From Chloroflexota bacterium (GTDB taxonomy: Bacteria; Chloroflexota; UBA11872; VXOZ01), in NCBI GenBank assembly GCA_965221905.1, contig OZ244922.1, forward strand, positions 3,296,001 to 3,360,000: DNA of 64,000 nt. The letters run 5' to 3'. Below are positions 7,817 through 13,506 of this stretch, in pieces; position 1 is the first letter of the stretch, and every line of letters starts with the position of its first letter. The notes under the pieces were generated by a model. The model saw only the letters and a program-made list of their open reading frames with translations. It was not told the DNA's origin and made no database searches. Both the position numbers and the translations under genes were made by a program.

Positions 7817-8132
7817 TCTGTCTGCCGCAGGCCGATGATCCAGTTTGCCCCTTTCATTTCGTGCCGCAAAGCAGAGGCACACCCTCACCCCAACCCTCTC
7901 CCTCGATGGAGAGGGAGCATCGCACAGAGAATATGGATTCCCCGCTGGCGCGGCAACGACGATCGCATCCATAGCGCGGGGGCTTGTCCCTCGCGCTGCG
8001 CCCAGCGAAAGCCACTCCACTCAAACTTTGAGCAGGACAAACCACCCGTTAAGAGCAACAGCGGCGCGCAACACCTCGTCACACGCCGCCCAAAAGCTCA
8101 AAGAACCTAGAATACACCCGTCTGGGAAGTCT

Positions 8133-9706: not shown

Positions 9707-10125
9707 AGTTCGGCGTCTCACTTGCTTCGACTAGCTCAGAACTAACATTTTCCACTCGTGCACCGTCTCATGGACTAGCCCGGCGCCATCTCCGGTATGT
9801 CGTTTACCTAGCTCCCTCTCCCATCGTCTCTCACTCCCTCTCCTAACATCTCTTAACTCCCTCTCCCCGTGGGAGAGGGTTGGGGTGAGGGTCTTGCGCT
9901 CATCTGCGTTCCGACACCGGACGCAGCTTTTCAAGAATTATGTTCGCTAAGATATTGCCCGCAGCGGGGCATGCACGGCAACCCACCAACGTCCGTCGAC
10001 GTCACGCTTCTGCCGTACGTGTGAGTCCCGCCGCGCCTGACAGCGTGCCCATAGAATAGGCGAGTGCCGTCCAACGTGTCAGGTACGAACAGCCGTTCGC
10101 ATTCATCCGAAATCAGAATTCCCAT

Positions 10126-10618: not shown

Positions 10619-11329
10619 ATGGCAACCGAGAAACTCCCGGAAGGACTGGTTCCCAGCGGCAGTTCACTCACGTTCACGGAAGATACCATCCCCGAAGCCC
10701 TCCAAAAGGAACACACGTTGGCGGCAGGACGTTGGGGCGTCCTCCACGTGTTTGCAGGCAGCGTGCGGTTTGTGAACCTCGAGACCAGTGAAGAGAGCGA
10801 CGTTTCTGCGCCCGATCACGTGATCATTCACCCGGAGGCACCGCACAGAGTACATCTCACCGGGCCGGTACAATGCCGCGTGGATTTCTTTCGAGAGTTG
10901 GACCACGACTCCACCATGCGCACGCCGGGCAGCTTTGCCGGCGATGAGGTGCGGCAAAGTTTCGATCGCTGCGAGGCCGCCGGCGACTTCGCTGAGACCT
11001 TCTACACTGCCTTTATGAATGCCTCTCCCGCGATTGCCCCGTTCTTTGCCAAAACGGAGTTCGCTCGCCAACGCACGCTGCTCCGGGATTCGGTATACCT
11101 GATGGTGACCCAGGACGTCTCGGACCCGGAGATGCGAGCATTGCTGAAAAAACTTGGCGAACTCCACAGCCGCGCCGGCCGCAACATCGCGCCAATGCTC
11201 TACGAACTGTGGCTGGACAGCATCTGCAAGACGGTAAAAGCCCTCGATCCCGAATGGACCCAATCACTCGAAGACCACTGGCGGGTACGCCTGCGCGCCG
11301 GGATGCAGATCATCACGGCGGCGTATTAG
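10619..11329 (+). CDS. DUF1971 (YeaR/TehB-N-like cupin) fused to a globin domain
   Basis: N-terminus FTEDTIPEALQKEH..GRWGVLHV..HRV; C-terminus SFDRC..FAETFY..PFF..RQ..LGELH..YELW (globin pattern). Confidence 0.75.
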   Translation: MATEKLPEGLVPSGSSLTFTEDTIPEALQKEHTLAAGRWGVLHVFAGSVRFVNLETSEESDVSAPDHVIIHPEAPHRVHLTGPVQCRVDFFRELDHDSTMRTPGSFAGDEVRQSFDRCEAAGDFAETFYTAFMNASPAIAPFFAKTEFARQRTLLRDSVYLMVTQDVSDPEMRALLKKLGELHSRAGRNIAPMLYELWLDSICKTVKALDPEWTQSLEDHWRVRLRAGMQIITAAY

Positions 11330-11428
11330 AGGGTCTGCGGAGACTCCTTTCACCGCGGAAAACGTGCTTCCCTAAACCGATGGACAAAGAAACTGCACAA
11401 GATGAATGTCCACTCGAACGTTGGAAAA

Positions 11429-12190
11429 TCACAGGTGTTTTTCAAAGCTTAGGTACTTCGACAGAACATCGTATTCAAGGATTATGCTCGTATCAGTCGC
11501 CTGATTTAGTCTTCTGGCTCTTCCTGGGTGTAACTTGCCGCTACGCTCCCTAAAGGCAACATTTACCACTCTCTTGCCATAATCCTTGATTAGCTCAACT
11601 GCGGGAACATAATCCTGATCACCCGAAACAACAACCGCCACGTCGTACACGTCTTTCAAGAATGCCATGTCACAAGCCAGTTTTACGTCGACTGACTTTT
11701 CTCCCCTAAACTTCCTCTCAAACAAATCGTATCTGACTATTCCCGATCGCCGGAATTCGACTGCGTCATGGTGTGTGGCGATATCTCCTTGTATGCGTAT
11801 CCACCCCTCAAATCGCCGCTGTATGCCTTCTTGGCGCTCCTCGAGGTCGTCCACAATCGCTAACATTCGCTCCATCCGAGATTCCACATCGACGAATTTG
11901 TCTAGCTGCGCCTGAAAGCAGGGATGCTTTGAAAGAATCGAGTTGAGGTTTTTGGGCTGTCTAGCTAGCTTTCTTAGACTATATGGATAAAACTCTATGT
12001 CTTGAACCACATACCAATAGGTGCGAATCCGCAATCCCAGATGGCTAGATTCGGAGGCGATGTAGTCAAATAACTTAGTCCAGTCGGCTCCCTTCGGCAA
12101 GTAGTCTGTTTTTTGGAACTCATCCTTGAAAAGACCACCAATGGAATGCCGAAAGTTTTCACCATCAACGAAGATGCACACTCTGTTCAT
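11429..12190 (-). CDS. NYN domain (LabA/DUF88, PIN-like) ribonuclease
   Basis: IFVDGEN, EKSVDVKLACDM and VVSGDQDYVPAV: catalytic acidic motifs intact. Confidence 0.9.
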   Translation of the reverse strand: MNRVCIFVDGENFRHSIGGLFKDEFQKTDYLPKGADWTKLFDYIASESSHLGLRIRTYWYVVQDIEFYPYSLRKLARQPKNLNSILSKHPCFQAQLDKFVDVESRMERMLAIVDDLEERQEGIQRRFEGWIRIQGDIATHHDAVEFRRSGIVRYDLFERKFRGEKSVDVKLACDMAFLKDVYDVAVVVSGDQDYVPAVELIKDYGKRVVNVAFRERSGKLHPGRARRLNQATDTSIILEYDVLSKYLSFEKHL

Positions 12191-12202
12191 GTTTCCCGCC
12201 TT

Positions 12203-12273
12203 AAACAAAAGCGGCGAACACGCAGTTCGCCGCATCGCCAATAAGCGTCTAGGACGCACCTAGACGAAGCCTC
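12203..12273 (-). ncRNA. putative ~70-nt structured leader RNA: two hairpins with identical UGCGU loop, the second being a terminator
   Basis: CGTCTAGG-TGCGT-CCTAGACG (12266-12246) and GCGGCGAAC-TGCGT-GTTCGCCGC (12233-12211) followed by TTTTGTTT. Confidence 0.65.
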
Positions 12274-12279
12274 ACTTCG

Positions 12280-12308
12280 ATTCTATCTCAACCGGCAACT
12301 TGAGTCAA
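12280..12308 (-). promoter_or_regulatory. sigma70 promoter TTGACT-17-TAGAAT
   Basis: Both hexamers 5/6 consensus with exact 17-bp spacer, immediately upstream of the twin hairpins. Confidence 0.8.
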
Positions 12309-12432
12309 TCGTCTCACGTTCGAGTTCATCGTCTGGTCTGCCAATAGGCAAGTACCTAGCCTGCATGTCACCGCTTGTCTATGCTAGTATACGGTATCCG
12401 TATTCGCGCAGCGTAAGAGGCAATGGTATCCC

Positions 12433-13506
12433 ATGCAGGTGCAAATTACCGCGCCGATTCATGGCGCGATCCTCAATCGGCACGACGGGCGGCAGGACGA
12501 CGCGGGCTTGCACATCACCGTGCAGGGCGTGGTGAGCGAAGCCGATACCGTGACCGTGAACGGCGTGACGGCCACGATAATCGGCGCCACGTTCACGGCG
12601 GACTACACCCTGGACGTCCACGAGACGGTGCTTACGGCCGTGGCGGAACGCGGCGGTGAGACGCTAACCCATGCCGTGACGGTGCTCTGGGACCAGCGTT
12701 CGTTCCCGCGCTACCGCTTCTCGCTGGACGACGACGTGTTGTTTCTGCGCGATATCGCCTTGGAACGGCCGCGCTCGCTCTTCGATAACTTCTACCTGGG
12801 GTTCATGCGCGACCTCCGCGACCGCTACGGCACCAAGACCCACATCAACATCTACTACGCTTACGAGGACTTCGACCTGCGGCAGATGCCGGATACGTAT
12901 AAGTCCGAGTGGCGCGACAACGCCGACTGGCTGCAACTTTCGTTCCACGCCCGCACCGACCATCCGCGCGATCCGTATAAGGAAGCGTCGGCAGAGAAAC
13001 TCATAACCGACTACCGGCAGGTGCGCGACGAGACGCTGCGCTTTGCGGGCGAGCAGAGTTGGTCGCACTTCACTACGATTCACTGGGGCGAGGGCACCCG
13101 CCTGGGCTGCCGCGCGTTGCGCCAGGAGGGTATCTGGGGCCTGGCGGGCTACTTCATTCCGGCCCCGGACCTGCGCGTAAACTACTACCTGGACCACGCC
13201 ACCACCGCTTACCTGCATACCCACGACTACTGGATGGACTACAGCGAGGATATTCTCTTCGTTACCCACGATCAGGTCATTAACTCGCACAAGACGCCGG
13301 AGGAAGTGACGGCCCATCTGGACTCCGTGGGGCAAGACCCCCACCGCAGTGAGATCATGGAGCTAATGGTCCACGAACAGTACTTCCGCAAAGAGCTGCG
13401 GCATTACCAGCCCAACGTGCCTGCAAAGACCGAGGCGGCCATCCGCTGGGCGACCGAACACGGCTACAAGTCGGTCTTGTACAACGAGGGCTTCCTGGGC
13501 GCGTAG
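12433..13506 (+). CDS. hypothetical protein: N-terminal Ig-like domain plus polysaccharide deacetylase-like barrel
   Basis: Beta-rich N-terminus; FSLDDD, SFHARTDH and MVHEQY motifs; strong GC3 bias. Confidence 0.6.
   Translation: MQVQITAPIHGAILNRHDGRQDDAGLHITVQGVVSEADTVTVNGVTATIIGATFTADYTLDVHETVLTAVAERGGETLTHAVTVLWDQRSFPRYRFSLDDDVLFLRDIALERPRSLFDNFYLGFMRDLRDRYGTKTHINIYYAYEDFDLRQMPDTYKSEWRDNADWLQLSFHARTDHPRDPYKEASAEKLITDYRQVRDETLRFAGEQSWSHFTTIHWGEGTRLGCRALRQEGIWGLAGYFIPAPDLRVNYYLDHATTAYLHTHDYWMDYSEDILFVTHDQVINSHKTPEEVTAHLDSVGQDPHRSEIMELMVHEQYFRKELRHYQPNVPAKTEAAIRWATEHGYKSVLYNEGFLGA

Follow-up and report, generated by a model that had tools for sequence, protein, structure and literature searches.

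Results

A promoter, two hairpins and a nuclease gene in one short locus

The locus described here lies in a 64,000-nucleotide stretch of the genome of a Chloroflexota bacterium (GenBank assembly GCA_965221905.1, contig OZ244922.1, positions 3,296,001 to 3,360,000; hereafter the window, whose numbering is used for all coordinates without a prefix). It consists of a candidate small RNA with two hairpins and, directly downstream on the same, minus strand, a gene encoding a NYN-domain protein (PF01936, LabA-like). An original prediction had reported a promoter at 12308-12280, two perfect hairpins of 8 and 9 bp with the common loop UGCGU, a terminator-like U-run, an ATG 12 nt further on and a visibly AT-richer NYN gene, and had proposed that together they form an RNA-antitoxin module. 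Each of these features was recovered in our analysis.

The sigma-70-like promoter is composed of a -35 element TTGACT (12308-12303), a spacer of 17 nt and a -10 element TAGAAT (12285-12280); with 10 of 12 matches it is the top one of three promoter-like sites in 3.1 kb. Judging by its position, the 5′ start of the small RNA would be near 12273. Hairpin 1 (12266-12246) has an 8-bp stem and the loop UGCGU, and reads CGTCTAGG-TGCGT-CCTAGACG as DNA and CGUCUAGG-UGCGU-CCUAGACG as RNA. A single-stranded spacer of 12 nt (12245-12234; the family median is 11 nt) separates it from hairpin 2 (12233-12211), which has a 9-bp stem and the same loop (GCGGCGAAC-TGCGT-GTTCGCCGC in the DNA, GCGGCGAAC-UGCGU-GUUCGCCGC in the RNA) and is followed by a U-run (12210-12203; DNA TTTTGTTT, RNA UUUUGUUU). 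Hairpin 2 and the U-run (12233-12203) scored as terminator-like, and are predicted to form an intrinsic-terminator-like 3′ end of the small RNA. The 12-nt gap between the U-run and the ATG (12202-12191, AAGGCGGGAAAC) is likely the ribosome-binding region, and a separate promoter of the NYN gene would not fit into it. The gene itself (12190-11429, ATG at 12190) encodes 253 aa, and its GC content is 0.46-0.49 (about 0.47), versus 0.57-0.63 in the flanks. One detail of the original prediction, that each hairpin is preceded by GGC and followed by CUU, failed: GGC lies 2-3 nt before the stems, the CUU of hairpin 2 needs the last base of the stem, and neither is conserved in an alignment of 50 sequences.

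The 101-nt leader folds into exactly these two hairpins (-41.6 kcal/mol, z -3.5), and none of 200 shuffled sequences was as stable. They are the only perfect Watson-Crick hairpins with a TGCGT loop and a stem of at least 6 bp in the whole 3.52-Mb genome; when G-U pairs are allowed, 156 TGCGT-loop hairpins with a stem of at least 4 bp are found elsewhere in it. The twin hairpins are real and far beyond what chance would give. The upstream neighbouring gene (12433-13506, plus strand) is divergent from the NYN gene, so the hairpins terminate no upstream gene. A listed open reading frame (ORF) of 276 aa, which starts at a GTG at 12259, spans the hairpins; homologs instead align from the ATG at 12190. 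A leader peptide was also considered and rejected: an in-frame ATG at 12239, within the spacer, reads through hairpin 2, and no peptide is conserved, because the stems differ among loci. One database protein (P0005) begins at a start of this spacer-ATG type and reads through hairpin 2.

The NYN protein

Profile searches and a structure model agree with the original prediction of a NYN protein with intact catalytic motifs: the product is a predicted PIN-like nuclease whose acidic residues are intact. The 253-aa sequence scored 57 bits against Pfam NYN PF01936 (cut-off 24.2; E 4.1e-15), the only family that Pfam gives for it, and it has no match to Abi_2 at E<=0.01. The profile aligns to residues 144-236, its N-terminal half being split off by a helical insert of ~70 residues, which the model places at about residues 70-140. 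Across 28 aligned sequences D168, D174, D183, D191 and D193 never vary, and D9 and E11 hardly ever. The AlphaFold model (pLDDT 92.9) has a PIN-like core, and its best Foldseek matches are LabA-like 2qip (E 1.6e-5), T5 flap endonuclease and the NYN domain of MARF1; prediction of a homodimer gave a score of 0.12, versus a mark of 0.42. We found 765 homologous proteins at E<=0.001, of which the best 120 share 49-84% identity over nearly the full length, and no NCBIfam family for the protein. PADLOC matched only ~50 residues of the NYN core, to HEC-09 and to an 'NYN' accessory model; in the HEC-09 comparison residues 163-213 matched positions 102-155 of the 203 of the profile (E 4e-8), and there was no full-length match.

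The twin hairpins covary across more than ten phyla

To collect relatives we scanned one genome per species, and of the 113 found we kept the best 80 loci. Their proteins are 44-61% identical, and their hosts belong to more than ten phyla, including Chloroflexota/Dehalococcoidia, Planctomycetota, Desulfobacterota, Nitrospirota, Binatia and Acidobacteriota, as well as Patescibacteria, WOR-3, Omnitrophota, Gammaproteobacteria and Actinomycetes. When the 100 nt 5′ of each homolog start were folded, twin hairpins appeared in nearly all loci. The leaders of the window and of 49 loci were then aligned by sequence alone (50 leaders; alignment A2). Of its 850 base-pair cells 96.5% are paired. The seed was chosen by means of a hairpin finder, whose test was passed by 63 of 77 loci; this choice inflates the percentage paired but does not produce covariation. 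Fifteen of the 17 pairs are altered on both sides, in 144 cells. Helix 1 accounts for eight of eight such pairs with 93.3% of cells paired, and helix 2 for seven of nine with 99.3%. None of 500 shuffles matched the real alignment on any of five measures, pairing fell to 38-50% when the 3′ partner was shifted by 1-3 columns, and the RNAalifold consensus recovered the same two helices independently. The loop columns are 84-98% conserved. A2 holds 87 G-U versus 4 A-C cells, and pairing would drop to 86.7% on the other strand; this excess indicates that the fold belongs to the RNA of the sense strand. The comparison that the original prediction had proposed, for covarying twin stems with a conserved loop and a terminator among homologs, thus came out positive.

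Several relatives carry (G)AUAC in the spacer (ATAC in 11 of 50 spacers, and also in the leaders called class B below), and the copy in the window does not. No Rfam 15 family was found, either in window positions 11000-13000 at E<=1 or in the leaders of seven loci at E<=0.1. Neither single-sequence nor consensus folds contain an antiterminator or an alternative pairing. We therefore rejected a riboswitch or ligand-sensing attenuator: there are only two plain hairpins, conservation is confined to the loops and no alternative pairing was seen, and three loci with the RNA unit on the other strand (see below) further counter it.

The surrounding layout is conserved as well. Among the 64 sequences in which both hairpins were found, 51 have a promoter of at least 9/12 matches within 45 nt 5′ of hairpin 1, often with a perfect TTGACA, whereas with shuffled upstream sequences the number passing the same test averaged 5.0 of the 64 and never exceeded 10. 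The -35 element TTGACT is retained in genus relatives. At least four T among the 8 nt 3′ of the hairpin 2 stem are present in 57 of the 64. Hairpin 2 and the ATG are a median of 22.5 nt apart (range 9-38), too close for a second promoter to fit between them, so that the NYN gene would be expressed only by read-through of the terminator.

The RNA and the NYN gene are found together

We examined the association of RNA and gene from both sides. On the gene side, a covariance model (R1) found the twin-hairpin unit in 70 of the 80 homolog loci (49 seed members and 21 others). In 67 of these it lies directly 5′ of the NYN gene on the gene's strand, and in the remaining three on the opposite strand. 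The ten loci with no good R1 match comprise eight loci of class B, mostly Patescibacteria, whose leaders combine a generic terminator and an AUAC spacer with a related hairpin 1 (CCUCGG-AAUUGU-CCGAG), and two loci, L080 and L082, with GC-rich hairpins and a terminator. The genome of the window has a single true R1 copy, and its four other NYN paralogs have no R1 match. A second match in this genome (1818034-1818113, 27.9 bits) was rejected, being the plain terminator of an ABC ATPase gene with no UGCGU loops. None of 150 other genomes of the phylum gave an R1 match above 28 bits; nine of them gave weak matches of 24-28 bits, the score range of the rejected ABC ATPase terminator.

On the RNA side, metagenomes were scanned with an exact degenerate pattern of the motif, giving 40 stretches, some of which are duplicates of one sequence from different metagenomes. 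Three were discarded as GC-rich chance matches that form no hairpins. In 32 of the 37 genuine copies a NYN gene starts within 80 nt on the same strand. A further three are followed by a broken NYN sequence, which is frameshifted in L122 and L149 and a short stub in L157, bringing the copies with NYN coding sequence downstream to 35. The other two, L123 and L146, are identical in sequence and carry the RNA with no NYN. No cluster of another protein beside NYN, antisense shadows aside, occurred in more than five of 77 loci. Judged by these genomic distributions, the RNA is exclusively linked to this NYN subfamily, and NYN would be its dedicated protein partner.

Orientation, loop changes and decay of the nuclease gene

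The three loci with the unit on the opposite strand (L056, L058 and L062) carry the whole unit and its U-run 110-210 nt 5′ of NYN, and form one clade of Planctomycetota (99% support). In them the unit would be a separate small-RNA gene, so a purely cis role cannot hold there, and action in trans is plausible from the arrangement.

In several lineages both loops are altered alike: both are UGCGG in L016/L020 and in L056/58/62, both are UGCG in four Binatia loci, and UGUGU occurs twice in L046. The NYN tree places these lineages apart from one another. In seven rows the two loops are identical and differ from the consensus, a number that none of 5000 permutations, in which kinship is ignored, reached. 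Such parallel changes suggest one reader for both loops. The leader of L006 has three hairpins, two of which carry UGCGG. This locus (L006:3867-3991, also G157:C1:2062110-2062171) belongs to the closest full-length relative (61% identity), and a stem of its leader nearly equals GCGGCGAAC of hairpin 2 in the window.

The RNA is repeatedly retained beside NYN genes that are no longer intact. Two genomes of the genus, G159 and G155, keep the unit at the window's site (62.5 and 49 bits) beside ~50 NYN codons with stops, and a third, G156, keeps it (67.8 bits) at another site beside a 27-codon NYN stub. Hairpin 2 is identical in the window's genome, G159 and G156, and the stems of hairpin 1 differ by compensatory changes. 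Further away, the leader is kept at 73-78 bits where NYN is broken by a stop codon (L039), a frameshift (L083) or an insertion of ~240 nt (L084). Such toxin-like decay of the nuclease gene with retention of the RNA is in line with the RNA-antitoxin module of the original prediction. In L084 (L084:3760-4001, Candidatus Magnetobacterium casense) the NYN frame is broken after codon 17 and a short coding stretch is duplicated; the ~240-nt interruption could be a small insertion element.

A probably mobile module at a variable site

Of the 16 other genomes of the genus, only G157 has a full-length homolog (61% identical), at a different site. The site in the window (11330-12432), between a DUF1971/globin gene and a gene for a 357-aa protein, is a variable islet in the genus. 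At the same site G160 (G160:C1:3243300-3248900, L163) has a CBASS operon (cyclase, E 5e-100; E1-E2, E 2e-165; TIR-SAVED, E 2e-133), and the sister genomes G159, G161 and G134 (L164, L165 and L166 are among these stretches) have a 902-aa methylase-like gene, a DNA methylase and a ResIII/helicase gene, respectively. These genes at the insertion site also speak for the module of the original prediction. Across phyla the link to defence is weaker: 8 of 132 sampled neighbouring ORFs, in 7 of 46 loci, matched PADLOC at E<=1e-15: three methylases, a restriction enzyme, HEC-09, PDC-S27, a DpdF-like protein and an oxidoreductase. A self-contained, horizontally mobile module of two parts is the best explanation of the low GC, the distribution over more than ten phyla and the patchy occurrence in the genus, as far as genome comparison can tell.

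Discussion

By analogy, the nearest characterised case is AbiF/RCd22 of Clostridioides difficile. RCd22 is an RNA of 98-132 nt with two conserved hairpin motifs and a terminator. It lies ahead of the toxin gene and forms the main transcript, read-through yields the toxin, and toxin expression is lowered in cis (PMC12373285). RCd22 neutralises the toxin in trans too, by direct binding, and in its stems the structure counts and the sequence does not (PMC12373285). The order of promoter, two-hairpin RNA, Rho-independent terminator, ribosome-binding site and protein gene is the same as predicted here. Unlike AbiF, which is an Abi_2 protein, the protein here is NYN/PIN-like, and its leader has no match to the abiF RNA motif RF03085. 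The hairpins here (21 and 23 nt) are also shorter than those of RCd22, and hairpin 2 is itself the terminator.

ToxIN, CptIN and TenpIN are accessory, mobile, stand-alone modules of two parts, in which one promoter gives RNA in excess. The type III layout of RNA gene, terminator and endoribonuclease gene under one promoter (PMC10511110, PMC12373285) is the one that the original prediction had recognised in the window, and this part of the claim stood: promoter, RNA, terminator and predicted ribonuclease gene follow each other in that order by sequence prediction. The locus does not belong to a known type III family. Tandem Repeats Finder returned 0 rows and a direct-repeat search found no repeat within the RNA, and the protein, for which Pfam gives only NYN, belongs to none of the ToxN/AbiQ, CptN and TenpN families. 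Since the toxin fold differs and tandem direct repeats are absent, we place the module outside the ToxIN, CptIN, TenpIN and AbiF families. The type III class does span toxins that are not ToxN-like: AvcID pairs a deaminase toxin with a small-RNA antitoxin, and loss of this labile RNA after transcription shut-off can trigger the toxin (PMC10511110). It differs from our locus in its deaminase, in the length of AvcI (~170-300 nt) and in that no terminator was predicted between its genes (PMC10511110).

The protein shares the catalytic fold and acidic residues with LabA-like NYN proteins, the MARF1 NYN domain, CRISPR-associated NYN and HEC-09, and differs from other NYN proteins in the ~70-residue helical insert and the dedicated RNA. 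The NYN of B. fragilis is an Mn-dependent single-strand RNase (PMC11346440). A literature search, with subscription journals and supplements outside it, found nothing that links NYN to type III toxin-antitoxin systems or to a conserved RNA motif. It found no RNA partner for bacterial NYN proteins, HEC-09 as the only NYN defence candidate, and, in agreement with the original prediction, no characterised NYN system of this form.

The reading that we put forward is a module like type III systems or like AbiF/RCd22, in which the RNA would attenuate expression of NYN and also bind and inhibit the protein; we consider it about equally probable that this is right and that it is wrong. Binding of the protein by the RNA, inhibition, toxicity and a role in defence are what we infer beyond the locus itself. 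A strong constitutive promoter would drive transcription through two hairpins that display the loop UGCGU; hairpin 2 and its U-run would stop most transcripts, leaving an RNA of ~70 nt in excess, and only read-through transcripts would include the NYN frame, which starts ~20 nt further. The NYN protein would recognise both loops, so that the RNA could act in cis, by attenuation, and in trans, by sequestering and inhibiting the nuclease. If transcription ceased or the RNA disappeared, for example because a phage took over the cell or the element was lost, NYN would be set free and might cut cellular or invader RNA. Such a mechanism would parallel that of type III toxin-antitoxin and AbiF/RCd22 pairs. 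A broader proposal, tentative and on balance somewhat doubtful, is that these loci represent an undescribed RNA-antitoxin/abortive-infection family of more than ten phyla, including candidate-phyla-radiation lineages. In it a minimal 70-nt RNA would keep the NYN protein in check, with two identical pentaloops being read, the stems free and hairpin 2 as the attenuator, and RNA-only remnants would act as antidotes against re-invading copies. The logic is that of type III and AbiF modules; the toxin fold and an RNA family outside Rfam are what is new.

Several observations weigh against a module in which RNA and toxin are matched in this way. The type III antitoxins known so far consist of tandem direct repeats, which the toxin processes, and here only the loops are common to the two hairpins. 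Many loci, such as L021, L022, L049 and L070, have a single deviant loop, so that concerted change of the loops is loose. In the eight leaders of class B, hairpin 1 alone has the special loop. The selection of the A2 seed by a hairpin finder, given above, belongs here too. HEC-09, the NYN candidate, gave no phage defence in its authors' tests (bioRxiv 10.1101/2024.01.29.577857). Defence genes are not general neighbours in the loci sampled, and no enrichment is claimed for them. No match of the family to plasmids was found at E<=1e-20, and viral contigs gave a single distant, partial match (L120). The RNA copies beside broken genes may be just young remnants.

Some ribonucleases control their own messages by binding or cutting their leaders, and a purely cis-acting, autoregulatory leader is one alternative. 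NYN or a host factor would bind or cut the hairpins in the nascent mRNA and so affect termination, stability or translation, with no toxin-antitoxin relation and no role for free RNA. In 67 of the 70 R1-positive loci the unit is in the 5′ leader and shares the strand of the gene; this location, a terminator-like hairpin 9-38 nt 5′ of the ATG and conserved loops that suggest a protein site all fit such a leader. We nevertheless find it unlikely, as the unit lies outside the NYN mRNA in L056, L058 and L062, antiterminator pairing is absent from single-sequence and consensus folds, and the unit keeps its full score where NYN is a stub or broken. The same orientation independence, together with the strict co-occurrence of RNA and NYN and the absence of another conserved partner, would suit a different relation, in which the small RNA is the working partner of NYN, be it a scaffold, a specificity subunit or a natural substrate, within a housekeeping or regulatory ribonucleoprotein, or is matured by NYN. 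This also accords with a CRISPR-associated NYN that trims RNA (PMC11346440), and with the 2017 classification of PIN-like domains, which lists the function of bacterial PF01936 as unknown (PMC5499597). The NYN gene, however, is patchy, low in GC and often broken, as would be expected of an accessory or costly gene more than of a housekeeping one; loops of 5 nt are too short for guiding by base pairing, and there is no sign of substrate mimicry in tRNA or rRNA genes. Such mimicry was rejected as no UGCGU-loop hairpin occurs in 50 tRNA genes (stem of at least 4 bp) or in the 16S and 23S genes (stem of at least 3 bp). A working-partner role therefore seems quite improbable to us.

That the hairpins act as DNA, whether as an operator or as the site at which a mobile cassette recombines or transposes, or are ordinary terminators that merely look alike, we hold to be very improbable. 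The gene does move between phyla and occupy a variable site, hairpin 2 scores as a plain terminator, and R1 weakly matches (24-28 bits) ordinary terminators elsewhere. But the 87 G-U versus 4 A-C cells are strand-specific, as expected of RNA; the stems vary freely and the loops alone are kept, a pattern foreign to any double-stranded DNA operator. With the upstream gene divergent there is nothing to terminate, the promoter keeps a fixed upstream position, and no flanking direct repeats were found in the searched leader region (12150-12450).

PF01936 NYN proteins are very common in bacteria; for this subfamily, a dedicated RNA partner with strong covariation now offers a concrete function that can be tested. 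Should the RNA inhibit the nuclease, the range of RNA-antitoxin systems would grow by a new toxin fold and by a very small RNA architecture, in which the loops are read and the stems are free, and would take in the little-studied Dehalococcoidia, Planctomycetota, Binatia and Patescibacteria. Recognition of a pentaloop by the nuclease, if this holds, would make the protein attractive as an RNA tool too. The RNA motif is ready for use: it is absent from Rfam 15, marks NYN loci precisely and is a candidate for a new family.

Other observations in the window and in related genomes

The divergent gene at 12433-13506 encodes a 357-aa product for which no Pfam family scored above threshold (a weak Glucodextran_B match has E 0.004), and it is conserved in all 16 other genomes of the genus with 83-94% DNA identity. 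Elsewhere in the window, ORF shadows on both strands with the peptide strings 'GEGWGEG' and 'TLTPTLS' occur at 7845-8110 and 9731-10024, ~1.9 kb apart, which suggests a short repeated element flanking a threonine-synthase-like gene. In a Dehalococcoidia genome, a full-length HEC-09 homolog (L032:7482-8102, E 6e-88), itself a NYN protein, is encoded as a separate gene ~2.7 kb 3′ of the NYN module. A Pirellulales contig carries an Acido-Lenti-1 small RNA (RF01687, 54 bits; L058:8192-8237) ~3.4 kb past the end of the NYN gene.

Perfect hairpins with a stem of at least 8 bp and a 5-nt loop number 213 in the genome of the window; the loop is TGCAA in 12, possibly the mark of a repeated element. A hairpin ACACCGCC-TGCGT-GGTGGTGT occurs in identical form at 1147804 and 1156371. 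The 23S rRNA match of this genome (G000:C1:2460797-2464524) is 3728 nt long versus a model of 2925 positions, and this excess suggests that the gene holds insertions. Two 16S genes (1927659-1929189 and 2436217-2437747) and the single 23S gene were found far apart, and are thus unlinked.

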